64,000 nucleotides of DNA from an uncultured Nitrospiraceae bacterium (GTDB taxonomy: Bacteria; Nitrospirota; Thermodesulfovibrionia; Thermodesulfovibrionales; SM23-35): NCBI GenBank assembly GCA_963727775.1, contig CAVSHB010000001.1, positions 608,001 through 672,000 of the forward strand. Reading direction: 5' to 3'. Below are positions 26,365 through 50,728 of this stretch, piece by piece. Below the pieces are notes generated by a model, which saw nothing but the letters and a program-made list of their open reading frames with translations, was not told the origin of the DNA and did no database searches. Each line of letters opens with the position of its first letter. The stretch's first letter is position 1. The translations under genes and the position numbers were made by a program.

Positions 26365-27132
26365 ATGAAAATCAAAGTTATAGGGTGTTCAGGTGCAGAA
26401 TTTCCCGGGCATAACGCACCTGCCTTTCTTCTGGACAATGAAATCCTGTTTGATGCGGGGAGTCTAACCAGCGTCCTGGATGAGAAAGCGCAGTTAAGAA
26501 TAAAGGATATCTTTGTTACCCATGCCCACCTTGATCATATACGGAGCATACCGTTTCTTGCCGATAACATTGTTGTCGGAAAAAAGAACAGCAAGATCAC
26601 GATTTTCAGTATCTCTTCTGTAATAAAAACAATTAAGAGACACCTTTTCAATAGTTCGGTTTGGCCTGATTTCACATTAATTCCAAACCCCGAAAATGCA
26701 ATTCTGAACCTTGTCGAACTGAAAGCCGGGACATCTATAAAAATAAATGGTTACACGATAACCCCGCATAAGGTAAATCATCCTGTCCCTGCTGTAGGAT
26801 ATTTGGTTGAGGACAAAATGGGGAAAAGATTTTTTTATACAGGGGATACGGGACCGTCTTCCAATACCTGGAAAAAGATCGGCAGTGCAAAGATCCATTG
26901 TCTCATCATTGATGTCTCTTTTCCCAATAATATGAGAGACCTGGCTATCAGTACGGGACATCTCACCCCCGACCTTTTAAAAGAAGAACTGCTGAAGATT
27001 CAGCCTGGACCTGAACATATATATATTACTCATCCAAAGCCCCATTATTTAAAAAACATTCAAGCACAGCTCAATAAGCTCAGGATGAAAAACCTTACCA
27101 TATTAAAAGACGGGGATATAATCAAGGTTTAA
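26365..27132 (+). CDS. Class II (MBL-fold) cyclic-nucleotide phosphodiesterase
   Basis: VIGCSG, DAGS, THAHLDH, FNSSVWPDF, HPVP, TGDT, GHLTP; RBS GGAGG. Confidence 0.85.
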   Translation: MKIKVIGCSGAEFPGHNAPAFLLDNEILFDAGSLTSVLDEKAQLRIKDIFVTHAHLDHIRSIPFLADNIVVGKKNSKITIFSISSVIKTIKRHLFNSSVWPDFTLIPNPENAILNLVELKAGTSIKINGYTITPHKVNHPVPAVGYLVEDKMGKRFFYTGDTGPSSNTWKKIGSAKIHCLIIDVSFPNNMRDLAISTGHLTPDLLKEELLKIQPGPEHIYITHPKPHYLKNIQAQLNKLRMKNLTILKDGDIIKV

Positions 27133-30940: not shown

Positions 30941-31055
30941 ATTATATGGGGATAGTATGGAAAGGACTATCTTCCTTTAGAAAAGCTGATCAAATGATGA
31001 TTCGTAAAACACTGAAATAACGTTTTTAAGATCGGTGATATTAAGGAGTAACGCC

Positions 31056-33390: not shown

Positions 33391-36300
33391 ATGAAAAAGC
33401 TTAATACCTTAATCTTTGCCATTATTATCTTTAACATCTTTCTTATCACAGGGATACTGATTCCACTTAATTCCGATGCAGCAACTCAAACCATGTATAC
33501 ACCAAACTGGGACACTAACACTATTAGCAAGGCAAATCTTGATGGCTCAGGCGGAGTCAGCCTCAACCTCGGGCTGTTAAATTACCCGTTTGGCATAGCA
33601 ATATCCGGCGAGAGGATGTATGTAGTCAATTATCAAAATAGCAAGGTTATCCGGGCAAATCTTGATGGCACTGGCGCACAAGATATCGGCAACCCCGGAA
33701 GCTTTCTCAGTAATCCGACGGGCATAGCGATATCCGGCGGAAAGATGTATATTGTTGCAATCGACGTGTCCCCTTACAAAGTTGTCCAGGCAAATCTTGA
33801 TGGCACTGGTGCACAAGATCTCGGCAACCTCAACGGTACGCTCAATGTGCCGAGAGGCATAGCAATAGACCCTTCAGGATACATATATGTAGCCAACGCT
33901 GGCGGCAACAACATCAGCAAAGCGGATATTAATGGTGGAGGTGGAGTGAGCCTTGATATCAGCGGACTATGCAACACGCCCGATGGCATAGCGATATCAG
34001 GCGGCAAGATATATGTTGCTTGCAATGGCAGTCAAAACATTGTCCGGTTAAATCTTGATGGCACTGGTGTGCAAAACCTCGGCAACCTGGGAGGGCTAAG
34101 CAAGCCGACGGGCATAGCGATAGACGCTTATGGCGGCAAGATGTATGTAGTGAGCAGTGATAACGGAAATGGCAATCAAAAAATTGTCCAGGCAAATCTT
34201 GACGGTACTGGTGGAACAAACCTAGGCAACTTAAGCGGCGTGCTACATTTTGGGCAGATGATTGCAATATTCACACAGCATAATCTTACGGTAACGAAGA
34301 CCGGCAACGGAACGATAATAAGCCTTCCTGCGGGTATTAATTGTGATACCGATTGCAACGAATTATATACCGAGGGAACTGTCGTTACCCTGAAGGCCAT
34401 TCCTGACGCAGGTTCGTACTTCAATGGATGGACGGGTGACTGCGTGAGTCAGGCATTGGAGTGTAAAGTGACGATGGATGCGGCGAAGAATGTTACCGCC
34501 AATTTCACAACTACTCCTCCATCCGTTCAAACCTGGGCAAAAACCTATGGCGGCACAGGTGGAGATTGGGCCAATTCCATCCAGCAGACCTCGGATGGCG
34601 GTTTCATTGTATCTGGTGCTACCGCGTCATTTGGTTCAGGCAGTAATGATGCATGGATATTGAAGCTTAATGCGGACGGAACAGTAGCATGGCAGAACAC
34701 CTATGGCGGAACGGGAGATGATGGTGCCGGTGCTATCCAGCAGACCTCGGATGGCGGTTACATTGTGGCTGGTAGTACCGCGTCATTTGGCGCAGGCAGT
34801 GCTGATGTATGGATATTGAAGCTTAATGCGGACGGAACAGTGGCATGGCAGAACACCTATGGTGGAACGGGAGATGATGGTGCCGGTGCCATCCAGCAGA
34901 CCTCGGATGGCGGGTACATTGTGGCTGGTAGTACCGCGTTATTTGGCGCAGGCAGTGCTGATGCATGGGTATTGAAGCTTAATGCGGACGGAACCGTAGC
35001 CTGGCAGAAAACCTATGGCGGAGCGGGCAATGATTATGCCAATTCCGTCCAGCAGACCTTAGATGGCGGGTACATTGTGGCTGGTTATACAGATTCATTT
35101 GGTGCAGGTTACGGCGATGCATGGATATTGAAGCTTAATGCGGATGGAACCGTAGCATGGCAAAACGCTTATGGTGGAGCGGGTGCTGATTATGCTGCTG
35201 CCGTCCAGCAGACCTCGGATGGCAGTTACATTGTGGCTGGTTATACCAATTCATTTGGTGCAGGTTCCGGCGATGCATGGATATTGAAGCTTAATGCGGA
35301 CGGAACCGTAGCCTGGCAGAAAACCTATGGCGGAGCGAGCGATGATTATGCCACTGCCGTCCAGCAGACCTCGGATGGCGGTTACATTGTGGCTGGTCGT
35401 GCAGATTCATTTGGTGCAGGTTACGGCGATGCATGGATATTGAAACTTAATGCGGATGGAACAGTGGCCTGGCAGAAAACCTATGGCGGGGCGGGAGATG
35501 ATTATGCCTACTCCGTCCAGCAGACCTCGGATGGCGGTTACATTGTGGTTGGTCGTACAGATTCATTTGGTGCAGGCGGTACGGATATATGGATATTGAA
35601 GCTTGATTCGGCTGGGAATATATCCGGATGCCCTTCAGGATTAATAGGGGTAACAAATGTATTAGGAAGTAGTGCAGGTGCGACTTTGACAGGTACGGCA
35701 GTGATAGCTGCAGGCACTGCTGTTAGCCCTCAGACAAGCATTGCAACTGTAACAGACACGAGCGTTTCAGGGGCGGTTATATGTACCGGTTTGCAGGAGT
35801 ACATGCTGACGGTTGCGAAGTCAGGCACAGGAGTCGGTTCTGTAACAAGCTCTCCCGCAGGTATCAATTGTGATACTTCGAATTTCGACTGTTCTGGGTT
35901 ATATCTTTCAGGCTCTGTCGTAACCCTTACTGCGTCAACGTATTCGGGCAATGCATTTACAGGCTGGTCAGGAGGCGGGTGCACCGGCACAGGAACCTGT
36001 GTTGTAACTGTAAACGCTCCCGTAACGGTAACCGCAAACTTTGATGCGGTGCCGACTTATCAAATGTCTGTTGTCCCATCAGGCACGGGTGCCGGCAGGG
36101 TAACAAGCACACCCGGCTATATCGACTGCAGTACAAATTGCGGTGACTGTTCTTGCGGGCAAAGTTACAATGAAGGCACAGCAGTCACACTTTCTGCAAC
36201 AGCTGATCCGGGGTCGGTATTTACCGGATGGACAGTCTCGGGCAATCCGACCGCTTGTCCCGGTACCGGAAACTGTCAGGTAACTATGAGCGCTGACCAG

Positions 36301-39300
36301 TCGGTGACTGCAGACTTCGAATTAGGTCCTACCATCAGGGTATTGCCGGCAAATTATAATTTCGGAGATACACCTGTCTCGACTCCATTGACACGTGAAG
36401 TGACAATCTCCAATATCGGCAGCGTAGGAAATCTAAACGTTACAAGTGACATGACCTTATCTGATTCTACTAACTATTCCCTGGATACGGGCAGTGGCTC
36501 AAGTCCCTGCGGCAGCACGACGCCGACAATTTCTCCCAGCAGCAATTGCACAGTTGTTATCACATTCACTCCTAAATCAACCGGTATTTTCAATACAACT
36601 CTGTCAATAATTTCAAATGATCCTGTTACACCGACGATAAATGTTCCGATGTCCGGTTCCTCCGGCGCTACAGGGATCAGCTGGGCAAAGACCTATGGCG
36701 GCACAGGTGTAGATAGGGCCAATACCATCCGGCAGACCACGGACGGTGGGTATATTGTAGCTGGATATACCGAGTCATTTGGCGCAGGCAATGGCTATGC
36801 ATGGGTAATGAAGCTTGGTTCAGGTGGTGCTGTGCAGTGGCAGAAGACCTATGGCGGTGGCGGTGTCAATGAAGTGTATTCTGTCCAGCAGACCACGGAC
36901 GGTGGGTATATTGTAGCTGGATATACCAATTCATCTGGTGCAGGCAGTGGCGATGTATGGATAATGAAGCTTGATAGTGATGGAAATGTTGGGTCAGATT
37001 ATTCGGGTACATGGCAGAAGACCTATGGCGGTGGCAATGTTGAGGTAGTGTATTCTATCCAGCAGACCACGGACGGTGGGTATATTGTAGCTGGATATAC
37101 CAGTTCATTTGGTGCAGGCAATGGCGATGCATGGATAATGAAGCTTGATAGTGATGGAAATGTTGGGTCAGATTATTCGGGTACATGGCAGAAGACCTAT
37201 GGCGGTGGCAATGTTGATGCAATGTATTCTATCCGGCAGACCACGGACGGTGGGTATATTGTAGCTGGATATACCGATTCATCTGGTGCAGGCGATAGCG
37301 ATGCATGGGTGATGAAACTCAACACAGACGGAAGCGTTGCATGGCAGAAGACCTATGGCGGTGCAGGTTCGGAGTATGCCTATCCCATTCAGCAGACTAC
37401 GGACGGTGGGTATATTGTGGCTGGAGGTACGTATTCATTTGGTGCAGGCAATGGCGATGCATGGATAATGAAGCTTGATAGTGATGGAAATGTTGGGTCA
37501 GGTTATCCCGGCACATGGCAGAAGACCTATGGCGGTGCAGACTATGACTTTGCCAATTCCATCCAGCAGACTACGGACGGTGGGTATATTGTAGCTGGAG
37601 GTACGTATTCATTTGGTGCAGGCAATGGCGATGTATGGATAATGAAGCTTGATAGTGATGGAAATGTTGGGTCAGGTTATCCAGGCACATGGCAGAAGAC
37701 CTATGGCGGTGCAGGCAATGATTATGCCAATTCTATCCAGCAGACTACGGACGGTGGGTATATTGTAGCTGGATATACTGAGTCATTTGGTGCAGGCAAT
37801 GGCGATGCATGGGTACTGAAGCTTGACTCGTATGGAAATATATCCGGCTGTGCGGCAAGTCTAATAGGTATCACAAATACAAATATATCAGGGATTGATA
37901 CGAATGCTACGGTAACTGATACCAGCGTGACAGGGATAGACACCTCCGTTACTCCACAACCGAGCAGCGCAACCGTAGCCGATACCGGCGTGACAGGTTT
38001 AGATATTTGTCCTCCATTAGGGTCTGTCCTCGATAATCCTTCCTTGACATGGACAACCGGCGGTGATGCACCCTGGTTCGGTGAGACGCTTTTCTCGATT
38101 GACGGGGATGCAGCGCAGAGCGGCGCTATTTCTAATGGGCAGAGTTCAACACTGCAGACGACTATCAATCCCTCTCAAGATGCTATTTTATCATTTTACT
38201 GGAAGGTCTCATCCGACCCTGCTCATGCTTTTTTGACTTTTTATATAGACGACATTGAACAATCAGGAGGACATATAAGCGGCGAGGTTGACTGGCAACT
38301 GAAACAGTATCCAATTTCAGCGGGTACCCATACCATCAAGTGGATTTATTCAAAAGATCCGTCAGCAAGCATCGTTAATTATGATGCGGGCTGGGTTGAT
38401 AAGGTGCAATTGGCAACATTATATAATCTGACAGTCAATAAAACAGGCAGCACAGGAGAGGGAACCGTAATAAGCCTGCCACCCGGCATCAACTGTGATC
38501 TATCGAATACTGACTGTTCTGAAATGTATGGAGATGGCTCTGTCGTTACCTTAAAAGCCGTTCCTGCTGCAGGTTTCTATTTTGCAGGCTGGTCAGGTGA
38601 CTGCGTCAGTCAAGCATTGGAGTGCAAGGTTGCGATAGATGCAGCGAAGACTGTTACCGCCAATTTTACGACTACACCTCCGATAGTGCAAACCTGGGTA
38701 AAGGTCATCGGAGACGCACAGGATGATGAGGCTAATTCTGTACAGCAGACATCGGATGGAGGGTATATTGTTGCGGGTACAAAAGACGGCGGCAGTGAAG
38801 GAACAGGTGATTTCTGGATAATGAAATTAACGGCTGCAGGTGATATCTCCTGGCAGAAGACTTATGGCAACGCAGATTCAGATTGGCCTTATTCTCTGGA
38901 GCAGACTGCGGACGGCGGCTTTATAGTGACCGGTATGACCGGTTATGGAGAATCCGGCAGCGGGCTTATCTGGATGTTAAAGCTCGATAAAGACGGAAAT
39001 ATAGAGTGGCAGAAAGAGTCTGATGGGTATAGTGAGCGCGGGAAGGCCATACACCAGACGTTTGATGGCGGGTATATAGTTATAGGCGAAACCAATTCAA
39101 GCGGCGCCGGATCGCAAGATATTCTGGTTTTAAAACTTGATAAAGACGGAAATATTCTGTGGAAAAAGACTTATGGCAGCGACGGGTATGAAGGAGCCAA
39201 TGATATAAAGCAGACTACAGATGGCGGGTACATTATTTCAGGCTATTCGGGGACCCTCGGCTCCGGAGCCTTTGATGCATGGATAATAAAACTTGATAGT

Positions 39301-42300
39301 AACGGAAATGTGGGGACAGGTTTTCCAGGTACGTGGCAAAAGACCTTTGGCGGAGGCGGCTCTACGAATGATTACCTGTCATCCATTCAGCAGACGTCTG
39401 ATGGCGGGTACATTGCTGCCGGAAATACCGAATCTTTTGGAGAAGGCAGTACCGATTTGTGGGTATTCAAGCTGCTTGCAAATGGTGATATTGACTGGCA
39501 AAAAACATTCGGAAGTACCGGCAATGAAGGGGCCAGTTCCGTACAGGAGGTCTATCAGGGAGGATATGTAATTGCAGGCAGCGGTTTTGACGGCAGCTGG
39601 ATATTGAGACTCGATCAATCCGGGAATAAGATATGGGAAAAGACCTACGGAAATTCAAGCAATGACAATGCCGCATCTGTCCGGCAAACATCGGATAACG
39701 GTTTTATTGTTGCAGGCTGGACTTCGTACCTCGGCAACAATCGTTTCCTGATTGCGAAGCTCGATGCTGATGGAGATGTTGGAGGCTGTTCGTTTATCAG
39801 TTCTGCTGCAAATTCCACAATGCATAATATAAATGCAGTTGTAGGGAACAGTTCAGGAACAATGGGAATCTCTTCAGATACACTCCAGTCAACTTTCGCT
39901 ACAGTCACACCTACAAGTGTAACAGAGGCGAATGTATGCAGCGGAACAGTTATTTTGTGGATCGGAGGAGACGGCAACTGGAGCGACCCTGCAAAATGGA
40001 GCTCCGGGTCTGTTCCGCTGGCAACTGACGATGCTCTGATAACCGTAGACGGCGATTATACGGTAACGGTGGCTTCGGACGCTGCAATACACAACCTGAC
40101 CCTCGGCGGCGCGTCCGGCACTCAGAAGCTTTCGATTAGCAACCCCTTTACATTTACAATAAACGGCGCAAGCACAATCAATAATCATGCCGGAATAGAC
40201 CTGAGCGGAACATTAAATGCAATCGGGGACATGACAATGAACGGCGTCCTGACCTGGAGCGGCGGGACGATCACCGGAGCCGGGGCTTTGATCATAAACA
40301 ACCAGGCGGTACTGAGCGGTACGGATATGACACTTGACGCAAAAACTGTAATCAATAATTCCTGGGTGTCATGGGTATACGGGAATGTTTATTTCAACAA
40401 TGGGGCGCAGTTCAATAATCAGGTCGGCGCGATATTAAGTATAGAGGCGGATTATAGTGCTTCCAGTAGCGCAGGCACCGGCGGTGCATTCAACAATAAC
40501 GGCGGCTTTATTACAAAAAACACAGGCACCGGGACGACGACTCTATCTAACATTGCATTCAATAATGACGGTACAGTGAGCATCGAGAGCGGTACGATTA
40601 AATTCGATAGCTCCATGTCATTTTCTAATACAGGGCCCAGTCGTTTGCAGGGTTATGGCACCCTTGATTTCTCGGGATATCCCTTCGGATCCAACAACGG
40701 CATCATCAGCCCCGGCACATCCATTGGTACCTTGTCCATTATCGGCAACCTCATACAGATGCCTTCGAGTGCTATAAATATCGAAATCGGAGGTACTGCT
40801 CAGTACGACCAGTTGAATATCAACGGCGCTGTTACTTTGGGCGGTACGCTGAATGTGAGTCTGACAGGAGGCTTTACTCCGAGTATAGGCGATACATTCA
40901 CCATCCTGAATTATATATCAAAAAGCGGAACCTTCAGCACTCAAAACCTGCCTTCACTGACGGGAAAGCAATGGAATGTAAACATTGGAGCGACCTCTGT
41001 TGTTTTAACCGTTACATCCAGTGATACCACCCCGCCAACTGTAAGTTCCACGAGCCCGGTTAACAGTGATACAAACGTCCCTATTACCTCGAATATCTCC
41101 GCGACCTTCAGTGAGGCGATGGATGCCTCGACGATCAACGGCTCGACATTCACTGTTAGTGGTGGCGTCACAGGCACTATCAATTATGATGCAATAACCC
41201 ATACCGCCACATTAACTCCGTCTGCGAATCTCGCCTACAGCACGATATACACGGCAACTATTACCGCAGGAGTAAAAGATGTAGCCGGGAATAATATGGC
41301 AGCAGCCTACACATGGACTTTCACTACAGCGGCAGCGCCTCCATGTACATACACATTTAATAATCCGGCAAGTGCGAACGTTCCGAATACGGGCGGAAAC
41401 AACCTCAGTTTCACAGTCACTGCTTCTTCACAGAGTTGTGTTTGGACAGCGAGCAGTAATAATCCCACATGGATCACCAGTGTATCAGGTGGCGCAACGG
41501 GTAATGGAACGGTGACCTATAACGTGTCCGTCAACACAGGGCTTGGCCGGTCCGGTTCGATATCGGTCGGCAGTCAGTCCTTCGTTGTTAATCAGGCGGC
41601 GGAAAACACCCCTCCAACCGTGACCGGTACGAACCCGGTTAACAATGCTACAAGTGTGCCAATTACCAGTGCTGTCTCTGCGACCTTCAGTGAGGCAATG
41701 GATGCGACAACAATAGCAGGGGCAACATTCACCTTAACCGGGGCAGCGGGTGGAGTGACGGGTACAGTTGCATATAATGCGGGGACAAACACTGCAACCT
41801 TTACGCCGTCTGCAAACCTTGCCTACAACACGACATATACGGCAACGATCACAACAGGAGTAAAAGACGTTGCAGGAAACAACATGGCGTCAAACTATAC
41901 ATGGAGTTTTACAACAGCGCCCCAGTATATGCTTAATGTGACTAAAACGGGTACGGGCAGTGGAACAGTAACAGGCAACACACCGCATACGGAGATCAAC
42001 TGCGGAAGCACTTGCAGCGCATCTTATGCCGCAGGAACAAATGTAACTCTTACCGCCGCACCGGCGGCAGGTTCAGGCTTTGCCGGATGGTCTGGGGCAT
42101 GTTCGGGAACCAACAGTTCATCAACCGTGACAATGGGTGGCCCCAGGACATGCACGGCAACATTCAGTGATATTGTTTATCCCACAGTCAGTTCTGCTGC
42201 TCCGAACAGTGGCGCCACAGGTGTTCCTGTGAATACATCCATCTCCGCGACCTTCAGTGAGGCGATGAACGCTTCAACAATAACAGGGGCGACCTTCACC

Positions 42301-45081
42301 TTAACCGGAGTAGCGGGCGCAGTTGCATATAATTCCGGCACAAACACTGCAACCTTTACCCCGTCTGCGAATCTCGCCTACAACACAACCTATACAGCTA
42401 CCGTCACAACAGGGGTTAAGGATATCTCAGGGAATAATATGGCGTCAAACTACATATGGAGCTTCACAACAGCGGCAGCGCCTCAGTACAACCTTAATGT
42501 AACCAAAACAGGAACTGGGACCGGTACTGTCAACAGTTCTGAGACGCCTTCTCCATTGATCAATTGCGGCAGCGCCTGCAGCGCAACATATAATTCCGGT
42601 ACCGTAGTCACGCTTACCGCCACAGCAGCGTCCGGCTCAGCCTTCACTGGCTGGTCAGGGGCCTGTTCAGGAGGGGCGCAGCAGTGTGCGGTAACCATGG
42701 ATGGTACTAAAACAGCTACAGCCAATTTTGACGTAGGCCAGGTCGCAACCCATGTCGTTACCCCATCCTCAGGAGGAAACGGCGATATTAGTCCTGCAAC
42801 ACAGCAGAACGTTCCGGACAATACGCCTGCTTCATTCGCCCTGAACCCTTCCACCGGCTACCACGTCTCCTCTGTGACCGGCACATGCGGAGGCACATTA
42901 AACGGTAATACGTTTACGACAAATCCTGTAAAAAGTAATTGTACTGTAACAGCCAATTTTGCGATCAACACTTACAAAATCACGCCTTCCGTAAATACAC
43001 AGGGAGGCACGCATGGCGTAATAACTCCGTCAGGACTTCAAACAGTCAATTACAATACACCTAAATCTTTTACCCTTACGCCTGTCACGGGGTATTATGT
43101 CGATACGGTTACGGGTGACTGCGGAGGCACATTAACCGGCAATGCTTTTAAAACGAATCCGGTGACCGCTGACTGTGCTGTAGTCGCCAACTTTGCGGCT
43201 AATACATACAGTGTTTCTACATCCATCGGCAGCGGCACAGGGGGAAGTATCAGCCCTACGGGTGTAACCGTAAACTACAGGGACAGGCCGCAATTCACAA
43301 TAACTCCCGATACGGGTTTTCATATCGGATCAGCAAGCGGCTGCGGCGGCTCTTTGAGCGGCAATACCTATACAACCGGCCAGATAACCTCAAACTGTAC
43401 GGTGGCCGCTTCATTTGCGATCAATACTTATACTATCTCAACTTCTGCCGGAACAGGCGGCGGGATCAGCCCCATGAGCGCCAAGCCAAATTATGGAGAC
43501 ACCCCGCAGTTTATGATAAACCCGAACGACGGTTACCATATCGTTTCTGTGAGCGGCTGCGGCGGTTCATTAAACGGCAATACTTATAAAACCGGCCAGA
43601 TTACAGGGAACTGCACGGTGACCGCAAGCTTTGCAATCAATACATATAATGTTTCCACATCTTCAGGCACAGGGGGTAACATAAGTCCTGTTAGCGCAAC
43701 AGTCGGTCAGGGGAACCCAACACAATTCATCCTAACGCCCGACGTCGGGTATCACATTGCATCAGTATCAGGTTGTGGGGGAACGCCGTTCCAGAGCTTA
43801 AATGTTATCACTTCAAAAAAGAAGCCAAAAAGAAATGCGCTCTTGAACAACACTTACACAACCGGTCCCATCACAGCGGATTGCACAGTCACAGCAGAAT
43901 TTGCAATCAACACTTATACCGTCACACCTTCTGCAGGAGCGCATGGAGGCATTAGTCCCTCATCTCCGCAGACAGTGGAAAACAATAACCCGATCTCATT
44001 CGGAATAAATCCTGATGCCGGTTATCATATCAATTCTGTGAGCGGCTGCGGCGGCGCATTATCCGGCGACATTTATAAAACAGGCCTGATCACAGGGGAT
44101 TGTACAGTCACAGCTTCTTTTGCGATCGATACCCACCTCGTTTCGACTTCAGCAGGTCAGGGCGGAGAAATCAACCCTGCAAGCGCGACGGTCAATGATG
44201 GTAGCACGACACAGTTCACTATAACTCCCGATGACGGATATTATCTCATCTCAGTATCAGGCTGTGGAGGAACACCTTTGCTGAGTTCAGGCGCAACGGC
44301 GAGAAAGCAGAAGAGTTCGCTCTCCGCTTACACATATAAGACCGGGCCGATAACAGCGGATTGTACAGTTATAGCGGAATATGCGGTAAGCATTTTTACT
44401 GTGACTCCTTCGGCGGTAGGGAACGGCAGCATTGATCCTTCAACTCCCCAAACAGCAAAATATAATGATAAGCTCACATTTACCATTAAGCCTGATTCGG
44501 GTTATCATATCACAACAGTGTCCGGCTGCGGCGGGTCTCTGTCCGGCAACATTTTTACCACCGGCAATATTACGGGGGATTGTATAGTCTCCGTATCTTT
44601 CGCAGTAAACACATATGTTGTTACAGCTTCTGCCGATCAGAACGGCAGCATTGTGCCTTCCGGGCGCCAGTACGCGGCCTATAATGAAATGCTGTCATTC
44701 ACCGTAACTCCGGACAACCATTACCACATCTCTTCTGTTACAGGCTGTGGTGGAACGCTCTCCGGCAACACATACACGACCGGGCCTATCACTCAAGACT
44801 GTAATGTCAATGCCGGATTTGCTATAGACGCCTATGAATTTGCAATCTCTATATCAGGCACAGGCAGCGGTACCATAACTGCGAATGGATTGTCCTGTAT
44901 AGGGAACGCCTGTTCAGAATTTCCGTATGGCATAAAGGTAGTCTTCAAGATACAGCCGGACCCCGGTTGCCGTGTAGCCGATATCAAGATTGACGGGGTC
45001 TCTATCGGCGCGGTTAATACCATAACCTTTAAGCAGATGACCAGTGATCATACTATTGAGGTTGTTTTTGAGACAATGTAA
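33391..45081 (+). CDS. Giant (3896 aa) secreted multi-domain surface protein/adhesin
   Basis: Signal peptide; NHL/YWTD-like propeller; three QQTxDGGYIVAG propellers; InlB B-repeats; Ig-like (ATFSEAM) domains x3; BACON-like domain; beta-helix-like segment; many C-terminal GYHI.SVSGCGG repeats. Confidence 0.9.
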   Translation: MKKLNTLIFAIIIFNIFLITGILIPLNSDAATQTMYTPNWDTNTISKANLDGSGGVSLNLGLLNYPFGIAISGERMYVVNYQNSKVIRANLDGTGAQDIGNPGSFLSNPTGIAISGGKMYIVAIDVSPYKVVQANLDGTGAQDLGNLNGTLNVPRGIAIDPSGYIYVANAGGNNISKADINGGGGVSLDISGLCNTPDGIAISGGKIYVACNGSQNIVRLNLDGTGVQNLGNLGGLSKPTGIAIDAYGGKMYVVSSDNGNGNQKIVQANLDGTGGTNLGNLSGVLHFGQMIAIFTQHNLTVTKTGNGTIISLPAGINCDTDCNELYTEGTVVTLKAIPDAGSYFNGWTGDCVSQALECKVTMDAAKNVTANFTTTPPSVQTWAKTYGGTGGDWANSIQQTSDGGFIVSGATASFGSGSNDAWILKLNADGTVAWQNTYGGTGDDGAGAIQQTSDGGYIVAGSTASFGAGSADVWILKLNADGTVAWQNTYGGTGDDGAGAIQQTSDGGYIVAGSTALFGAGSADAWVLKLNADGTVAWQKTYGGAGNDYANSVQQTLDGGYIVAGYTDSFGAGYGDAWILKLNADGTVAWQNAYGGAGADYAAAVQQTSDGSYIVAGYTNSFGAGSGDAWILKLNADGTVAWQKTYGGASDDYATAVQQTSDGGYIVAGRADSFGAGYGDAWILKLNADGTVAWQKTYGGAGDDYAYSVQQTSDGGYIVVGRTDSFGAGGTDIWILKLDSAGNISGCPSGLIGVTNVLGSSAGATLTGTAVIAAGTAVSPQTSIATVTDTSVSGAVICTGLQEYMLTVAKSGTGVGSVTSSPAGINCDTSNFDCSGLYLSGSVVTLTASTYSGNAFTGWSGGGCTGTGTCVVTVNAPVTVTANFDAVPTYQMSVVPSGTGAGRVTSTPGYIDCSTNCGDCSCGQSYNEGTAVTLSATADPGSVFTGWTVSGNPTACPGTGNCQVTMSADQSVTADFELGPTIRVLPANYNFGDTPVSTPLTREVTISNIGSVGNLNVTSDMTLSDSTNYSLDTGSGSSPCGSTTPTISPSSNCTVVITFTPKSTGIFNTTLSIISNDPVTPTINVPMSGSSGATGISWAKTYGGTGVDRANTIRQTTDGGYIVAGYTESFGAGNGYAWVMKLGSGGAVQWQKTYGGGGVNEVYSVQQTTDGGYIVAGYTNSSGAGSGDVWIMKLDSDGNVGSDYSGTWQKTYGGGNVEVVYSIQQTTDGGYIVAGYTSSFGAGNGDAWIMKLDSDGNVGSDYSGTWQKTYGGGNVDAMYSIRQTTDGGYIVAGYTDSSGAGDSDAWVMKLNTDGSVAWQKTYGGAGSEYAYPIQQTTDGGYIVAGGTYSFGAGNGDAWIMKLDSDGNVGSGYPGTWQKTYGGADYDFANSIQQTTDGGYIVAGGTYSFGAGNGDVWIMKLDSDGNVGSGYPGTWQKTYGGAGNDYANSIQQTTDGGYIVAGYTESFGAGNGDAWVLKLDSYGNISGCAASLIGITNTNISGIDTNATVTDTSVTGIDTSVTPQPSSATVADTGVTGLDICPPLGSVLDNPSLTWTTGGDAPWFGETLFSIDGDAAQSGAISNGQSSTLQTTINPSQDAILSFYWKVSSDPAHAFLTFYIDDIEQSGGHISGEVDWQLKQYPISAGTHTIKWIYSKDPSASIVNYDAGWVDKVQLATLYNLTVNKTGSTGEGTVISLPPGINCDLSNTDCSEMYGDGSVVTLKAVPAAGFYFAGWSGDCVSQALECKVAIDAAKTVTANFTTTPPIVQTWVKVIGDAQDDEANSVQQTSDGGYIVAGTKDGGSEGTGDFWIMKLTAAGDISWQKTYGNADSDWPYSLEQTADGGFIVTGMTGYGESGSGLIWMLKLDKDGNIEWQKESDGYSERGKAIHQTFDGGYIVIGETNSSGAGSQDILVLKLDKDGNILWKKTYGSDGYEGANDIKQTTDGGYIISGYSGTLGSGAFDAWIIKLDSNGNVGTGFPGTWQKTFGGGGSTNDYLSSIQQTSDGGYIAAGNTESFGEGSTDLWVFKLLANGDIDWQKTFGSTGNEGASSVQEVYQGGYVIAGSGFDGSWILRLDQSGNKIWEKTYGNSSNDNAASVRQTSDNGFIVAGWTSYLGNNRFLIAKLDADGDVGGCSFISSAANSTMHNINAVVGNSSGTMGISSDTLQSTFATVTPTSVTEANVCSGTVILWIGGDGNWSDPAKWSSGSVPLATDDALITVDGDYTVTVASDAAIHNLTLGGASGTQKLSISNPFTFTINGASTINNHAGIDLSGTLNAIGDMTMNGVLTWSGGTITGAGALIINNQAVLSGTDMTLDAKTVINNSWVSWVYGNVYFNNGAQFNNQVGAILSIEADYSASSSAGTGGAFNNNGGFITKNTGTGTTTLSNIAFNNDGTVSIESGTIKFDSSMSFSNTGPSRLQGYGTLDFSGYPFGSNNGIISPGTSIGTLSIIGNLIQMPSSAINIEIGGTAQYDQLNINGAVTLGGTLNVSLTGGFTPSIGDTFTILNYISKSGTFSTQNLPSLTGKQWNVNIGATSVVLTVTSSDTTPPTVSSTSPVNSDTNVPITSNISATFSEAMDASTINGSTFTVSGGVTGTINYDAITHTATLTPSANLAYSTIYTATITAGVKDVAGNNMAAAYTWTFTTAAAPPCTYTFNNPASANVPNTGGNNLSFTVTASSQSCVWTASSNNPTWITSVSGGATGNGTVTYNVSVNTGLGRSGSISVGSQSFVVNQAAENTPPTVTGTNPVNNATSVPITSAVSATFSEAMDATTIAGATFTLTGAAGGVTGTVAYNAGTNTATFTPSANLAYNTTYTATITTGVKDVAGNNMASNYTWSFTTAPQYMLNVTKTGTGSGTVTGNTPHTEINCGSTCSASYAAGTNVTLTAAPAAGSGFAGWSGACSGTNSSSTVTMGGPRTCTATFSDIVYPTVSSAAPNSGATGVPVNTSISATFSEAMNASTITGATFTLTGVAGAVAYNSGTNTATFTPSANLAYNTTYTATVTTGVKDISGNNMASNYIWSFTTAAAPQYNLNVTKTGTGTGTVNSSETPSPLINCGSACSATYNSGTVVTLTATAASGSAFTGWSGACSGGAQQCAVTMDGTKTATANFDVGQVATHVVTPSSGGNGDISPATQQNVPDNTPASFALNPSTGYHVSSVTGTCGGTLNGNTFTTNPVKSNCTVTANFAINTYKITPSVNTQGGTHGVITPSGLQTVNYNTPKSFTLTPVTGYYVDTVTGDCGGTLTGNAFKTNPVTADCAVVANFAANTYSVSTSIGSGTGGSISPTGVTVNYRDRPQFTITPDTGFHIGSASGCGGSLSGNTYTTGQITSNCTVAASFAINTYTISTSAGTGGGISPMSAKPNYGDTPQFMINPNDGYHIVSVSGCGGSLNGNTYKTGQITGNCTVTASFAINTYNVSTSSGTGGNISPVSATVGQGNPTQFILTPDVGYHIASVSGCGGTPFQSLNVITSKKKPKRNALLNNTYTTGPITADCTVTAEFAINTYTVTPSAGAHGGISPSSPQTVENNNPISFGINPDAGYHINSVSGCGGALSGDIYKTGLITGDCTVTASFAIDTHLVSTSAGQGGEINPASATVNDGSTTQFTITPDDGYYLISVSGCGGTPLLSSGATARKQKSSLSAYTYKTGPITADCTVIAEYAVSIFTVTPSAVGNGSIDPSTPQTAKYNDKLTFTIKPDSGYHITTVSGCGGSLSGNIFTTGNITGDCIVSVSFAVNTYVVTASADQNGSIVPSGRQYAAYNEMLSFTVTPDNHYHISSVTGCGGTLSGNTYTTGPITQDCNVNAGFAIDAYEFAISISGTGSGTITANGLSCIGNACSEFPYGIKVVFKIQPDPGCRVADIKIDGVSIGAVNTITFKQMTSDHTIEVVFETM
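34525..37840 (+). repeat. Near-identical intragenic tandem repeats (43-aa/129-bp and 53-aa/159-bp blades)
   Basis: Recurring CAGCAGACCTCGGATGGCGG (about 34.5-35.6 kb) and CAGCAGACCACGGACGGTGGGTATATTG (about 36.7-37.8 kb). Confidence 0.85.
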
Positions 45082-45089
45082 AAGTTAAT

Positions 45090-46391
45090 TCAGTGGGTTG
45101 CACAGCTGAGACAGGGATCGAATATCCTTACACACCGGCTGATGAGTTTCTCGCCTTCTCCGGATATCCTGTCTCCTTCTAAATGTTTTTCTGCCAGATG
45201 TCTAAGAAAAAAGTTGATGTAGGCGTTATTAAACTGTGTGGCAACCAGAAGACGCATGCGTTCAATCTTCCCCTGATTGACGAGGTAACTGTGCATAAGT
45301 ATCCCTCGCGGCGCCTCTAAGACACCTGTCCCCTGTCCGCTTGCCGTCAGATCAGCGTCGACGGTCATCTGTGCAAGGTCTATCTTCTCTGTCAGATGAA
45401 GTATTTTTTTTGCGGCCCAGAAGATCTCCAGAAGGCGGCAGGCGTCATACGACTCCAGTGTCAATGAACTGCGGTTGCGTAACAGATTAGTAAGGTCAAG
45501 ATTAAGCAAATCCGGGTCGTGCAATGGTCCATTCTCCTGGAAACTACGGGACAGAGGCCCAACGAGCATGATCCCGTCCGGAAACCCCAGTCTTGTTAAA
45601 AAAGGAAATTTGGCAAGAGTCCAATCAGTTCTTAATTCGGAAATGTTATCCATAAAATCGTTGCGTCCAAAACGGAATTCCTGTCCTCCTTTTTGATTGT
45701 ATACGCAGAATGCGTCTTCTCCATCATTGCCATCGTAAGCTACAAAGTTAATGCGTTGTTCCGAAGGGAAAGGGATACTTTTCGACGAAGAATGAATCTC
45801 CCCGAGTTGTTGAATGAGACTTAGTGTGCGCGCTTTGACATCCATAGTTATAGTGCGAATTTCTTCAATGTCGGCAGAAGATGGAGACGAAGAAAAGCGG
45901 CCTATCCCGATCGTTACAGGATGAGACGTGCGTTTCCCCAGGAGCCGGACAATGCGCAATCCTGCATTACGCAGAGCAAAGGCTTCCCTCGTTATATCGG
46001 GGTGACTTTTCATAAGTTCAAAAATTCCTGCAGATGCGCCCATAAAGTCAGGCATGGTCAGAAAAAAATAACTTAAAGCGTGGCTGTCGATCCATTCACC
46101 TAATACCATTATTTCGCGGAGGGCTTTTACAGAGGGGGTCGGCTGGATCGATAGCGCTTCTTCAATGGCGCTGATTGAAGCAACCTGATGGGAGGATGAA
46201 CACAGGCCGCAGATCCGTGAGACCATATGAGGAACATGCTCAACACGCAGCCCGCGGGTAAATCCTTCAAAACCGCGAAACTCATGTACCAAAAACCGCG
46301 CTGTCTTTATTTTGCCTTCTTCGACCTCGATCTGAATATTGGCGTTTCCCTCTATTCGCGTGGCCTTCTGAAAAAGAATTTTTTTGCTCAT
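45090..46391 (-). CDS. Group 3-type [NiFe]-hydrogenase large subunit without C-terminal extension
   Basis: TRIEG, RGFE, L1 RICGLC, EAPRG, L2 DPCLSCATH followed directly by TGA. Confidence 0.92.
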   Translation of the reverse strand: MSKKILFQKATRIEGNANIQIEVEEGKIKTARFLVHEFRGFEGFTRGLRVEHVPHMVSRICGLCSSSHQVASISAIEEALSIQPTPSVKALREIMVLGEWIDSHALSYFFLTMPDFMGASAGIFELMKSHPDITREAFALRNAGLRIVRLLGKRTSHPVTIGIGRFSSSPSSADIEEIRTITMDVKARTLSLIQQLGEIHSSSKSIPFPSEQRINFVAYDGNDGEDAFCVYNQKGGQEFRFGRNDFMDNISELRTDWTLAKFPFLTRLGFPDGIMLVGPLSRSFQENGPLHDPDLLNLDLTNLLRNRSSLTLESYDACRLLEIFWAAKKILHLTEKIDLAQMTVDADLTASGQGTGVLEAPRGILMHSYLVNQGKIERMRLLVATQFNNAYINFFLRHLAEKHLEGDRISGEGEKLISRCVRIFDPCLSCATH

Positions 46392-48286
46392 CTGATCCTC
46401 GATCTGTCACTCGGGAAATAGCGGTTGAACTTGAGTGAGCTGTTCGCATGTTTGCGGTAGATCTTCATCACCGACTTGATCTGGTCTTCCAAATGCGGAT
46501 GGCGTCCAACGAGTGAACTTAGCATGACCTCTTCAAAACTGCTCCCTTCGTCCATTTTTTTGAAAGCAGTCTGCGAAGGTCCGCGACATCCCCAGCACGG
46601 AAGGCCACCCCGAGGACAGACAGCCCCGCAGCCGCCCTTTGTCATGAATCCCATACATATAGCGCCACGGGAAGTGAAACAATGGTCTTTTCCCCATTCA
46701 GGTCTTGGGGCGACCCAGAAATGCTCTGCCGGAATTTTCTGCGGTTTGCGGCTGCACTCAGCACATACAATGGGTTTTGTTTTTACAGATTGCGCTTCAC
46801 CTTTGAGTTCGTTAATGAGCCGGCTGAGAAGGCCGACGTTTGGCGGGCATCCCGGAAGGTAATAATCAACCCTGACGAAATCATCCAGTTTCCTTGCGCG
46901 TCTGAGCAGTTTTAATTCCTCTTCCTGGTCCTGGTAAGTTGCCCGGGCTATCCCGCGCGAGCCCGACATGTAATATGCGAGGGGGTCTTTTGCATGGCCG
47001 TAAGATTCTTCGATCAATTCCTCAAGTTCGTATTGGTTGGCATAAGCCGGTATACCTCCAAAAGCGGCGCATGTCCCCCATGCAATGAGATATTTGGCCT
47101 TATGGCGGGCTTCTATAAGCTTTTCCTCGTCTTCTTTAACCCTTACCGTGCCATCAACAATTGCGATTTCTACCTCTACGATTTCTTCGGCATCAATCAG
47201 CATAGGGCAATATGAGATATTTATCTTTTTGAGAAGGTTTGTCAGCATTGCTTGGTCTTCCAGCAATACCGCAGAACAACCGCCGCAGGTGGACAAAGAA
47301 ACAATAGCAGTGCTGGTCCGGTTTTTCTTTCTCAATGGAGGAGGCATGTTGCGCATAATTACGCCTATTGATTTTTCAGGAGCGTTCAACGTCATCAACA
47401 GCATCCGCAGGCGGATGATTAAGCCCTGCAATATATACAGACCCAGTTCGGGTTCTGCCTTAATCCTCTCGGTGAACTCGTCCAGCTTTACAGGAAACAA
47501 TAGGGTACGCCCGGCAGCAGAAGCGTGGGCTGTCCTGCTTTGGCCGGTGATTATGGATGTCTCCCCAAAAAATTCTCCAGGTCCTAAATGCGCTAAAACG
47601 TACCTGTCATTATCCGGTCCCTGGCTGATCTCAATCTTGCCCTCGACTACAATAAATAGCCTGTCGCCGGGATCACCCTGATGAAATATGTATTCTCCAT
47701 CCTCGAACCATACACATTCTTCCCGATTGACAGAGACATCAACTGAAGAGTGTAATGACTTCTCTCGTGTCGGTAAATCTTTCAGATCTTCAGATTCCTG
47801 ATATCCCGCAGCCTGTGTGGACCCTGATTTTACGATGACATCAATATCAGGCGGCTGCGGGGATTCTGTCTGCTCATTCCGTTTATTTTCAATCAGGGCG
47901 CGTAAATTTTCATCGCCTTCAACTACAGCCTGCACGAGACGGCTTGTTTTTGTAATCCGCAGGCATAAAGTCTTAAACAGATGCGTGATCACTCCGGGAT
48001 CATGACGTATACGATTCAGCAATGATATACGGGTCAGGGGTAAAAGACAACTGCGGCTGATTGCTGTGGCAGTGGCTGCCCTGGCGTGATGGTCAAACAG
48101 CGCCATTTCTCCAAAAAAGTCCCCACGTTCCAATAATGCGAGAACATTCTTCTGCTCGTCTTTATTCCGGCTGATCTCAACAGCCCCCGATTGAATAATG
48201 TACATGGTATTACCCTGGTCGCCCTCACGGAATATGATCGCGCCTTTCTCGTAGGTAATGCCGAAAAGCTCTTCGCCCTTGCTCAT
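46388..48286 (-). CDS. Tandem cNMP-binding domains fused to a group 3 [NiFe]-hydrogenase small subunit
   Basis: GDFFGEMAL..RAATA and GEFFGETSI..RTAHA; then TCGGC, GTCAAFGGIP, LPGCPP, CAEC, CF, CMG..TKGGCGAVCP..GLPCWGCRG; ATGA overlap with the large subunit. Confidence 0.92.
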   Translation of the reverse strand: MSKGEELFGITYEKGAIIFREGDQGNTMYIIQSGAVEISRNKDEQKNVLALLERGDFFGEMALFDHHARAATATAISRSCLLPLTRISLLNRIRHDPGVITHLFKTLCLRITKTSRLVQAVVEGDENLRALIENKRNEQTESPQPPDIDVIVKSGSTQAAGYQESEDLKDLPTREKSLHSSVDVSVNREECVWFEDGEYIFHQGDPGDRLFIVVEGKIEISQGPDNDRYVLAHLGPGEFFGETSIITGQSRTAHASAAGRTLLFPVKLDEFTERIKAEPELGLYILQGLIIRLRMLLMTLNAPEKSIGVIMRNMPPPLRKKNRTSTAIVSLSTCGGCSAVLLEDQAMLTNLLKKINISYCPMLIDAEEIVEVEIAIVDGTVRVKEDEEKLIEARHKAKYLIAWGTCAAFGGIPAYANQYELEELIEESYGHAKDPLAYYMSGSRGIARATYQDQEEELKLLRRARKLDDFVRVDYYLPGCPPNVGLLSRLINELKGEAQSVKTKPIVCAECSRKPQKIPAEHFWVAPRPEWGKDHCFTSRGAICMGFMTKGGCGAVCPRGGLPCWGCRGPSQTAFKKMDEGSSFEEVMLSSLVGRHPHLEDQIKSVMKIYRKHANSSLKFNRYFPSDRSRIR

Positions 48287-48529
48287 GGAGATATGCTCTG
48301 CGCACTTTGAATAAGCACGCTGTTTCCTCCTCAATTCAGTTCGGTCCTGCCTGCTCCAGGCTGAAACAGTATAACATATGGATAATGCCGATAAGGAACA
48401 ACAATATATAACCCGGGAAAATTTTGGCGGGATATATGGTTTTCAGGCATGGTATCATATTACACGTCAAGTCGAAAGAAAAACCCCTCGTCCGGGAAGG
48501 ATGGTGCTTAGTGCTAAGGAACAGGTCTT

Positions 48530-50506
48530 ATGCTGGGAGATAGATCAAAAAAAGCTCAGGTCATTTTCCTCATAGGAATTTTCATTACGGGGTTACTGGC
48601 ATTTTTAATGGTCATAAAATTTCGTCCCCTTGAAAGTCTCGAAGGCATGATGTACGACCTGAGATTCAGACTTATGGGGAATACGCCGCCTCCTGAAAAT
48701 ATTGTTATCGCTGCGATAGACGATAAAAGCATCGAAAGACTCGGGAGATGGCCGTGGAGCAGAGATAAGATTGCCCGGCTTATCACAAAGCTGACTGAAG
48801 CAGGGGCAGAGTTGATTGTATTTGATGTATTCATGACCGAAAAAGAAGAACACGATCCGGTCTTCGTTAAGACCGTGAGAGATGCGGGAAACGTTTTGCT
48901 TCCCCTTGTCTTTTACTTTGACAGGAGGACGGATACCAAAGAGAGCGAGCCTTTGTTGAACGCTGCGTTTCATTCAATTAAGGACGCCGAGAAGTTTAAC
49001 AGATATGCTCCCCTGAGTGTTAAGGGTGTTCTTGCCCCTTTGCCGGAACTCATCCGGGAATCTATGTCGCTCGGACATATCAATATGGTCCCGGACAGAG
49101 ACGGAATTCTCCGGTGGGAAATGATGGCCCTTGAATATCATGGATACCTGTATCCATCCCTGGACGCCCAGACAGCAGCAGTTTATCTTGCAATACCACA
49201 TGAGAAAGTAAGTGTTCATGCCACTGAAGGGATACAATTAGGGTCTAAACGATATATCCCGACTGATGAATATGGCAGGAGCCTGATTTTCTATTATGGA
49301 CCGTCAGGTACATTCAGGCAATTTTCAATTGCCGATATAATGGAAGACAAAATACCGTCCGGATTCCTGCAGGGTAAAATCGTGCTTATCGGTGCAACGG
49401 CGCTGGGGATTTATGATCTCAGGGTGACGCCTTTTTCCGAGGTCATGGCCGGAGTCGAAAAGCATGCAAATGTTATTGCTTCCGTCATCGAAAACAGGTT
49501 CCTCAGGAAAGCTCCCTTCTATGTAAACCTCATTATACTTCTGCTCTCCGGGTTTATTCTCTCTATTACAGTAGGAAGATTTAAGTCCGGCATTTCGTTC
49601 ATCATCTCCTTTATTATGACTTTATTTCTAATAACGCTTAGTTACTGGTTGTTTGCCGGAAAGGGTATTTGGATAAATGTCGGATATCCGGTCATTACCG
49701 TGTTGCTTGTATTTGTAAACGGGACAGCCTATAGCTATGCTGCCGAGGAGACATATGCAAGGAAAATACGTACCATGTTTTCAAGCTATGTAACAGAGAG
49801 GGTCGTTGATGAACTAATCAAGAACCCGGGTATGGCAAAACTCGGAGGCGAGAGAACAGAGGTGACCATTCTTTTCTCGGATGTGAGGGGGTTTACAGCT
49901 TTTTCTGAAAACCATTCGCCTGAAGAAGTCGTTACAATCCTCAATGAGTATCTCGGGGCCATGACAGAGATCATATTTAAGTGGGAGGGCACACTCGACA
50001 AGTTTATAGGGGACGCTATCCTGGCCTTTTGGGGTGCTCCAATGAAGCAGGATAACCATGCTGATCTCGCTGTAAAATGTGCGCTGAACATGGTAAAAAA
50101 ACTCGATGAACTGCAGCAGAAGTGGATTTCTGAGGGGAAGCCTGCCCTTAATGCCGGGATAGGAATAAATACCGGCGAAGTGATCGTGGGCAATATCGGG
50201 GTAGAAGGTAAGAAAATGGACTATACGATTATCGGAGACCATGTGAACCTTGCGTCAAGAGTTGAGTCGTTGACGAAAAAGTACAATGCCGCTCTTCTAT
50301 TAACGGAATTTACTTTAAATAAAATAAAGGGGGCCATAGTTGGGGGAAGAATAAGCCATGTAGAGGCGACAGGACTGGAGAGGGTCATCGTAAAAGGCAA
50401 GGAAAAAGCGGTTGCTATTTATGAAGCCAAGTCGCTCGAACACGGCGGTCAAAGCAGGATTGTTGAATGTGAGGAAGGGAAAATAGTGCGCCACAAAGAA
50501 AAATAG
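48530..50506 (+). CDS. CHASE2-domain class III adenylate cyclase
   Basis: IVIAAIDDKS..GRWPWSR, three TM helices, FSDVRGFT, DKFIGDA, DYTIIGDHVNLASRVE (Lys/Thr pair indicates ATP specificity). Confidence 0.93.
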   Translation: MLGDRSKKAQVIFLIGIFITGLLAFLMVIKFRPLESLEGMMYDLRFRLMGNTPPPENIVIAAIDDKSIERLGRWPWSRDKIARLITKLTEAGAELIVFDVFMTEKEEHDPVFVKTVRDAGNVLLPLVFYFDRRTDTKESEPLLNAAFHSIKDAEKFNRYAPLSVKGVLAPLPELIRESMSLGHINMVPDRDGILRWEMMALEYHGYLYPSLDAQTAAVYLAIPHEKVSVHATEGIQLGSKRYIPTDEYGRSLIFYYGPSGTFRQFSIADIMEDKIPSGFLQGKIVLIGATALGIYDLRVTPFSEVMAGVEKHANVIASVIENRFLRKAPFYVNLIILLLSGFILSITVGRFKSGISFIISFIMTLFLITLSYWLFAGKGIWINVGYPVITVLLVFVNGTAYSYAAEETYARKIRTMFSSYVTERVVDELIKNPGMAKLGGERTEVTILFSDVRGFTAFSENHSPEEVVTILNEYLGAMTEIIFKWEGTLDKFIGDAILAFWGAPMKQDNHADLAVKCALNMVKKLDELQQKWISEGKPALNAGIGINTGEVIVGNIGVEGKKMDYTIIGDHVNLASRVESLTKKYNAALLLTEFTLNKIKGAIVGGRISHVEATGLERVIVKGKEKAVAIYEAKSLEHGGQSRIVECEEGKIVRHKEK

Positions 50507-50556
50507 TGGGCCCGGAAAATCCGGTTGACGGTTATGTCACCGGTTCTATGAGTTAA

Positions 50557-50714: not shown

Positions 50715-50728
50715 TTAAAATAGCAGGC

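Follow-up and report, generated by a model that had tools for sequence, protein, structure and literature searches.

The hydrogenase described here is encoded in a 64,000-nucleotide stretch (the window, in whose positions all coordinates are given) of contig CAVSHB010000001.1 from an uncultured Nitrospiraceae bacterium. Two open reading frames (ORFs) on the reverse strand, joined by a 4-nt ATGA overlap, encode a [NiFe]-hydrogenase whose small subunit begins with two cyclic nucleotide monophosphate (cNMP)-binding domains. A nucleotide cyclase gene starts divergently at 48530, with 243 bp between it and the ATG of the small subunit, much as the original prediction, made from the sequence alone, had placed it (about 240 bp upstream). 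The same prediction had seen two complete cNMP domains fused to a group-3-type small subunit and overlapping a large subunit with intact L1 and L2. Pfam and the motifs FGEMAL..RAAT and FGETSI..RTA confirm the former, and the overlap and both large-subunit motifs are present in the sequence. The locus comprises the following features.

46388..48286, reverse strand: fused small subunit, 632 residues (cNMP domain A, variable linker, cNMP domain B, MvhG-like three-cluster Fe-S domain, helical C-terminal extension)
47915..48265, reverse strand: cNMP-binding domain A (residues ~8-124), with an FGEMAL..R69 pocket and a CRP-type C-helix with R110
47384..47719, reverse strand: cNMP-binding domain B (residues ~190-301), with an FGE..R251 pocket and a C-helix with invariant R292 that runs into the hydrogenase domain
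46577..47317, reverse strand: hydrogenase small-subunit domain (residues ~324-570), with 12 conserved cysteines and three Fe-S clusters predicted as in MvhG
45090..46391, reverse strand: group-3 [NiFe] large subunit, 433 residues, ending at DPCLSCATH without a maturation tail, with RIEGN replacing RIEGH
48287..48529, no strand: divergent intergenic region of 243 bp, in which no sigma-70 site or CRP-like box was found
48530..50506, forward strand: CHASE2/class III nucleotide cyclase (CHASE2 and Guanylate_cyc domains), one of two cyclases in the genome and part of the cyclic AMP (cAMP) module

In the fused ORF, Pfam recognizes two cNMP_binding stretches (PF00027, 157 bits) followed by Oxidored_q6. 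An in-frame TTG is found at 48334, but homologues start at the ATG that corresponds to 48286. The original prediction had allowed for a singleton or a misassembly. However, all 120 listed homologue clusters combine PF00027 with PF01058, and a contig of a related strain from run X4 (1144 bp, 46518-47658, 86 differing letters) spans the junction between domain B and the small-subunit domain, so that the fusion is due neither to chance nor to misassembly.

Within the small-subunit domain, the Fe-S cysteines (residues 334, 337, 406, 480, 508, 511, 536, 544, 553, 557, 564 and 567) are each conserved in at least 119 of the 120 homologues. Together with the best structure-chain match, 5odc_E (E 3e-46), they identify a three-cluster subunit of the MvhG type; the VhuG profile gives 169 bits (cut-off 450). 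Since this amounts to a full MvhG-like Fe-S wire, the enzyme would need an external electron carrier. The helical C-terminal extension is specific to the family and ends in a conserved SRIR, where the ribosome site for the large subunit is also encoded. No signal peptide was seen at the N-terminus of either subunit.

Both cNMP domains possess a CRP-type pocket and a C-helix arginine, a combination (G-E...R plus the helix Arg) that we take to be the CRP motif. The pocket residues are intact in 112/112 homologues for domain A (G59, E60 and R69) and in 109/112 for domain B (G241, E242 and R251), the eight rows without domain A being left out, and the helix arginines are conserved in 115/116 (R110) and 120/120 (R292). 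Such counts suggest that the pockets are under strong constraint. The pocket Arg is mostly followed by Ser in domain A (74/112) and by Thr in domain B (80/120), a pattern that does not discriminate between cAMP and cGMP.

Modelled in isolation, the two-domain cNMP module reaches a predicted local distance difference test (pLDDT) score of 84.5 and a predicted template modelling (pTM) score of 0.80, despite a disordered linker that varies between 29 and 75 residues. Its top structural matches are CRP, Clr-cAMP and the cAMP-binding EAL enzyme Bd1971 (Z 15.5, 14.8 and 14.8; root-mean-square deviation (rmsd) 2.9-3.5 Å over 111-124 residues), and each single domain also best matches these three proteins. 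The predicted pair can be aligned with the tandem arrangement of PKA-R/PKG only at an rmsd of 9-21 Å. Some single CRP-type chains align over residues ~3-300 of the module, which would be expected if the barrel of domain A packs on the helix of domain B. The model thus suggests that the two domains form a single-chain CRP-like pseudo-dimer, with the second helix leading into the Fe-S domain. The full-length AlphaFold model of the small subunit scores poorly in its Cys-rich region (mean pLDDT 71) and was excluded from all claims on the relative placement of domains.

The large subunit contains L1 (RICGLCSSSH), L2 (DPCLSCATH), E14 and the APRG arginine, and thus has the CxxC motifs, the proton-transfer Glu and the canopy Arg that go with its group-3 sequence affinity. 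The Ni ligands C61, C64, C427 and C430, as well as E14, H68, R362, T385 and H433, are invariant (59/59 aligned). A point absent from the earlier note is that the protein stops exactly at the Ni-site His, with no cleavable tail. The tail is missing in 120/120 listed large-subunit homologues and 77/77 closed locus ends; among 150 group-3 representatives, 14 rows from outside the family lack it as well. RIEGN takes the place of RIEGH in 115/120 listed large subunits. A tail-less large subunit is a trait of the group 2b sensors, and missing tails also occur among group 4 enzymes. According to extracts of the same source, naturally tail-less enzymes are matured by Hyp, and genetically tail-less SH and Hyd-2 assemble without nickel (PMC7294309). 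The present genome encodes hypD and one HycI protease, both elsewhere than in the operon.

The large-small dimer was also modelled. The predicted complex scores 0.91 against 0.00 for the best control (the mark applied is reached by 116/157 solved and 2/215 mismatched pairs), the runs agree in at least 89 % of the contacts and partner pLDDT is at least 83. Because the pair resembles solved Mvh pairs, the score indicates likeness only.

A rare family within group 3

The protein search gave 392 matches among 7999 scored candidates, of which 120 (self included) were listed; these share 45-70 % identity and are labelled Nitrospirota, Deltaproteobacteria or Chloroflexota. Among 84 loci examined, 45 had less than 2 kb upstream. 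In the other 39, which are informative, the two cNMP domains and the small subunit form one ORF in 33 cases, lie in pieces in four and are reduced to deletion remnants in two. In the Atlas, the family is represented by its own cluster of 53 members, and all other matches were generic cNMP proteins. A GTDB scan by large-subunit alignment, dominated by the generic L2 motif, yielded four family loci among 80 listed, and the other 76 provided the canonical group-3 controls used below. Extended fusions that would include an output domain were also sought, in a weak search, and none of the 771 candidates was of this kind. The distribution of the family is rare and patchy: the fused hydrogenase is carried by 10/390 genomes of the bacterium's own class, all within its own taxonomic family, by 2/401 genomes of the class of the Anaerolineae member and by 8/401 of the class of the deltaproteobacterial member. 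All five carriers checked have other hydrogenases, and the present genome has, as read from its sequence, two further hydrogenase operons, both tailed: HdrA-MvhD-MvhG-MvhA, which is canonical, and a 3b operon of four genes. Deletion remnants of the fused operon were seen at L130:452-762, L149:194-505 and L111:2171-3223; at L130 and L149, residues 1-40 of the small subunit abut the last ~55 of the large one, beside a cNMP-kinase gene.

The original prediction had left the classification of the large subunit to HydDB or phylogeny. Sequence matches assign it to group 3, and in the trees it belongs to one long-stemmed clade apart from the genome's own 3c enzyme. The family occupies one side of a fully supported, long-stemmed branch both with FastTree (103 rows) and in a quick IQ-TREE run (45 rows), but these trees, built without 3a, 3f or 3g references and without an outgroup, leave its position within group 3 unfixed (groups 3f and 3g are described as archaeal hybrids in an extract of PMC11216029). 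Two tailed singletons, P0247 and P0248, both with RIEGN, sit next to the family as a sister group. P0248 was sought in 301 genomes of the class of the Anaerolineae member, where matches of only 33-39 % were obtained; 14 of 15 large subunits retrieved from this class were readable and all are of ordinary 3c/3d type. In approximately unbiased (AU) tests, joining the family to the four-row clade with the genome's own 3c was rejected (p 0.014, for a clade chosen after the tree was viewed). The best trees place the family apart from 3b, but a joint clade with 3b was not rejected (p 0.24). With the VhuA profile, the family large subunit scores 173 bits versus 338-540 for ordinary 3c/3d controls.

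Known operon types were considered in turn. The original prediction had noted no diaphorase, HydB/G, Hdr or maturation (hyp) gene in the flanks, and indeed the Pfam scans of window ORFs revealed none. Group 3c (MvhAGD-Hdr) was rejected in view of the lack of MvhD or HdrA encoded with the hydrogenase and the location of the genome's own 3c operon elsewhere; a single FlpD gene was seen among 290 neighbour ORFs (locus L186, ~7 kb off, opposite strand). Neither HyhB nor HyhG of the 3b operon (HyhBGSL) was found among the neighbours scanned. Group 3d (HoxHYFU) was set aside for want of a diaphorase neighbour and in view of the 12 conserved Cys, HoxY having a single cluster. Finally, the absence of a C-terminal extension is shared with group 2b, but all top matches belong to group 3 and no conserved HoxJ-type histidine kinase was found among the neighbours.

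The best matches for both subunits are MvhAG/VhuAG of group 3c (PDB 5odc, 9sw2) and the group-3 module of PDB 7t2r (E 2e-57 to 4e-52 for the large and 3e-46 for the small subunit), with which the fused enzyme shares a 12-Cys, three-cluster small subunit. It differs from them in an identity of only ~30 %, a separate clade, the lack of an MvhD/HdrA partner and of a cleavable tail, the N-terminal tandem cNMP module and another small-subunit C-terminus. In an extract of West-Roberts et al. (bioRxiv 10.1101/2021.08.23.457424), a provisional group 3e is presented as divergent, near 3c/3d, made up of a small and a large subunit only and present in Anaerolineae, a description that the fused family fits. 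The extracted main text contains neither ‘cyclic’ nor ‘cAMP’, the neighbour genes given in its figure legend were not seen beside the three Chloroflexota loci, and the fused family also occurs in two other phyla. Compared by description only, group 3e has close to even odds of being the fused family seen via its large subunit alone.

Cyclic AMP genes around the operon

The operon lies inside a CHASE2-cyclase/PDE/FecR/TPR gene set (PDE, phosphodiesterase), all four gene types being present in the window. In an extract of Mo et al. 2022 (PMC9239204), this module is reported to have moved horizontally. Next to the features listed above, the relevant genes are:

26221..27132, forward strand: class II cAMP PDE-like protein (PF02112), the genome's only match, 18 kb from the hydrogenase
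29432..33281, forward strand: genes for a TPR/outer-membrane-barrel protein and a FecR-domain protein, which complete the published CHASE2-cyclase module
33391..45081, forward strand: 3896-residue surface protein (Big_5, InlB B-repeat, DUF5122), downstream of the TPR-barrel and FecR genes and convergent with the hydrogenase, ending 8 bp from its stop
61743..63290, reverse strand: cNMP-domain Ser/Thr kinase, of an architecture found directly beside the hydrogenase at many other loci

FecR-TPR genes and a CHASE2 cyclase also flank the operon in genomes G160 and G1026. In the present genome, a promoter scan returned 9 sites against 8.8 expected, none of them in the 243-bp intergenic region, where no CRP-like box was found at 7/10 matches to the motif; Rfam gave no match within 44000-52000.

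The neighbourhood survey covers 76 deduplicated loci, with Pfam run on 290 of 308 neighbour ORFs (18 short ones omitted). Recurrent neighbours are class II cAMP PDEs, cNMP-Ser/Thr kinases, PP2C phosphatases, varied cyclases and other fusions in which a cNMP receptor is joined to kinase, GNAT, sigma54, SulP/STAS, MMPL-GGDEF or rhodanese domains. The cyclases differ in architecture, being of CHASE2, AAA-TPR or soluble type. ApbE and ETF genes are located downstream in one lineage, and flavoproteins and a 2-oxoacid oxidoreductase were seen once each. Within 7 kb, a cNMP-related gene is found at 23/76 family loci (331 kb of flank) versus 3/76 canonical group-3 loci (890 kb), or 15/25 versus 3/70 where at least 5 kb of flank is available, and a cyclase, PDE or CHASE2 gene at 12/76 versus 1/76, with profiles that were trained on family neighbours, that overlooked some directly abutting genes and that were applied to controls of differing taxonomy. 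Random windows of the own genome give 1.7 % for cyclase/PDE/CHASE2 and 4.4 % for any cNMP-related gene.

Whole-genome Pfam searches are free of this training bias. In G162, G175 and G200 they place the sole class II PDE within 0.4-2.7 kb of the operon, and a cyclase is found at 2 kb in G175, 6.5 kb in G186, 10 kb in G160 (its only one) and 25 kb in G189. A cAMP-related gene is present within 7 kb in 8/10 carriers of the bacterium's own taxonomic family, the exceptions being G189, with its nearest cyclase and PDE ~24 kb away, and G188, where the contig ends. In the deltaproteobacterial class this applies to 5/8 carriers (two of which share synteny, the three others being seen one-sided or on a short contig) versus ~6-8 % expected from 17-27 cNMP and 7-17 cyclase matches per genome. 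Rough chance estimates range from p 0.0004 to 0.11 per genome; resting on manually entered distances and on related genomes, they were not multiplied.

The linkage to cyclase genes that the original prediction had proposed is thus upheld in part. In two of the three lineages, cAMP genes lie near the operon far more often than the background would predict, but no cAMP neighbour was found at the three Chloroflexota loci (L001, L002, L210), and the divergent CHASE2 cyclase was rejected as a dedicated partner: the nearest cAMP gene varies by genome, and a cyclase is present not only in 10/10 carriers of the own taxonomic family but also in 36/47 of its non-carriers. The link is to cAMP signalling in general and not to one particular cyclase, and the genomic support for a cyclic-nucleotide connection is good.

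Some further genes were observed in these neighbourhoods. DUF6901 recurs near the operon or its cyclase (L132, L147, L182, L211) and may belong to the cAMP module. In G189 (L212), the hydrogenase is separated from the PDE and cyclase genes by other large repeat proteins. hypF/D/E adjoin the operon in G392 (L204) and G1040 (L205), where an MMPL-cNMP(-GGDEF) membrane protein is encoded between them and the hydrogenase and ApbE and ETF genes follow downstream; the same island of G392 also encodes HycI and a group-1 hydrogenase whose gene is interrupted by an in-frame TGA.

Proposed gating by cAMP and its alternatives

The original prediction envisaged either that cAMP switches the hydrogenase or that H2 feeds into cAMP signalling, and the former is the better supported. 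The operon has no output domain, only input domains and a catalytic core, and its neighbours include other cNMP receptors, so the hydrogenase is most simply read as one more receptor. We would give an even chance to the reading that the fused enzyme is a cAMP-gated hydrogenase that serves as an output of cAMP signalling and relies on an electron partner encoded in trans. Beyond the sequence facts, the mechanism that we infer runs as follows. Hyp proteins encoded elsewhere would load the NiFe site, a protease being unnecessary, and domains A and B would pack as the CRP-like pseudo-dimer. A nearby cyclase would supply cAMP (or cGMP) and the class II PDE would degrade it. On binding, the nucleotide would move the C-helix of domain B, which leads into the Fe-S domain, and this movement would gate H2 turnover or the access of an in-trans carrier (ferredoxin or MvhD-HdrA) to the distal cluster. 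The hydrogenase would act as a cytoplasmic accessory enzyme in cells with other hydrogenases. Bd1971, Clr and CRP have the same N-terminal CRP-type cNMP domain with a long C-helix before the effector; they differ from the fused enzyme, in which the effector is a metalloenzyme subunit and two domains per chain form the predicted pseudo-dimer.

Several points weigh against gating by cAMP. CRP-type pockets are able to serve other ligands. No widely recurring redox partner was found among the neighbour ORFs scanned at the 76 loci; with no conserved electron partner, turnover would have no evident purpose, and a missing tail together with a missing partner would fit a sensor as well. The operon is dispensable, since L111, L130 and L149 have internal deletions. 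As to the genomic linkage, it is lacking in Chloroflexota, related carriers are not independent and the 7-kb comparison has the biases given above. Furthermore, 3/14 other hydrogenase loci of carrier genomes have a cyclase or cNMP gene within ~8 kb, so that the contrast between family and controls is smaller than the 7-kb counts suggest.

Instead, the enzyme might be an H2/redox sensor or coincidence detector of low turnover, in which Fe-S reduction changes how tightly the cNMP module binds cAMP or its partners and thereby tunes a kinase, phosphatase, cyclase or PDE; we consider this possible but rather doubtful. The tail-less large subunit recalls the 2b sensors, yet tail loss is unspecific, as the group 4 enzymes and the non-family group-3 rows illustrate. 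The absence of a redox partner among signalling neighbours that include PP2C and cNMP-kinase genes fits a sensor, as does the presence of other hydrogenases in the carriers checked and in the own genome, but there is neither an output domain nor an invariant neighbour to dock on, the cyclases themselves being of different types. The family-specific C-terminal extension can be cited in favour, although its SRIR terminus may be conserved as coding for the ribosome site of the large subunit. Moreover, cNMP domains normally act as inputs. HydDB, in extract, attributes sensing to 2b and, putatively, 2c, and cofactor coupling to group 3 (PMC5037454). HoxBC of group 2b and the putative 2c enzymes resemble the fused hydrogenase in the cytoplasmic dimer, the tail-less large subunit, the signalling context and the lack of a dedicated electron acceptor. 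They are unlike it in that the fused enzyme has a group 3 sequence, no conserved histidine kinase or diguanylate cyclase, and ligand-input domains on the enzyme itself.

It is unlikely that the domains form a HoxI-like metabolite site for NADP(H) or another adenine metabolite, which would couple the enzyme to redox poise. The Chloroflexota carriers without cAMP neighbours would agree with such a site, but the genes linked to the operon encode enzymes of cAMP synthesis and breakdown, no flavin subunit is available to use NADP(H), and a cNMP-like gene beside a canonical hydrogenase at L006 (HoxI-like by context only) has His for the pocket Arg that the family keeps. HoxI is the known cNMP-like hydrogenase subunit, and both in HoxHYFUI2 and with the group 3b cNMP-like gene a CRP-like domain is tied to a group-3 hydrogenase (extracts of PMC12319191 and PMC3189943). 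However, HoxI can dissociate from the flavin-containing enzyme of which it is a separate subunit, whereas the fused family has two domains, the pocket Arg and no diaphorase.

Hitch-hiking appears very improbable. Here the fusion would be real, but the cAMP neighbourhood would merely reflect a ride on a mobile signalling island, with structural or vestigial cNMP domains, as the reported mobility of the CHASE2/PDE/FecR/TPR module, the transposases in the window and the patchy distribution might suggest; near-invariant pockets across 45-70 % identity argue to the contrary, and one such event would not yield at least eight neighbour architectures in two classes. Slimmest of all is the chance of a nickel-free, inactive scaffold, in which the large subunit would serve just to stabilise a regulatory protein with Fe-S and cNMP domains: a maturation without a tail to proof-read, the RIEGN motif, the long stem branch and the nickel-free assembly of genetically tail-less SH and Hyd-2 would suit it, but the Ni cysteines and the five other active-site residues listed above are invariant, hyp genes adjoin the operon in G392 and G1040, and natural tail-less enzymes are Hyp-matured.

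Returning to control by cAMP, the known regulation of hydrogenases operates via gene expression, maturation and O2, and sensory hydrogenases signal to kinases or, putatively, to diguanylate cyclases. In agreement with the original prediction, no tandem-cNMP/small-subunit fusion was found in the literature searched, which covered neither subscription journals nor bioRxiv supplements; nor was a description of cyclic-nucleotide control of hydrogenases, although the supplements on group 3e could bear on this novelty. The hydrogenase architecture is real, conserved and apparently undescribed. The extracted main text of Mo et al. (PMC9239204) does not contain the word ‘hydrogenase’, which would make the enzyme a new output of that module. 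On the whole, the family rather probably represents a new group-3 subgroup in which H2 is wired directly to a second messenger through a dimer that needs no protease and contains a single-chain CRP-like pseudo-dimer, and which is either cAMP-gated or serves as an H2/cAMP AND gate on neighbouring kinases and travels with the mobile CHASE2/FecR/TPR/PDE module. If true, direct allostery by cAMP or cGMP would add a new layer, by which anaerobic sediment bacteria tie their H2 metabolism to surface sensing. Annotation would also be affected, as databases label these genes ordinary F420-non-reducing or NAD-reducing hydrogenases. A soluble enzyme of two genes with no need for a maturation protease should be simple to express, and a hydrogenase that a ligand can switch would be of use.

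The window contains a number of other elements. A ~165-bp dispersed repeat at 50552-50718, which folds into a long hairpin and has dozens of copies of 80-96 % identity spread over all four contigs, looks like a MITE (miniature inverted-repeat transposable element)-type element; in run X4, a copy of it is joined at 45085-45087, just beyond the hydrogenase stop. Transposases are found at 6564, 24638 and 28056. The cNMP-Ser/Thr kinase is followed by a calcineurin-like metallophosphoesterase (60978-63290, 13 kb from the operon), msrB-msrA lie at 51486-52766, and an XhoI-family restriction endonuclease is paired with an N6/N4 methylase at 56240-57936.

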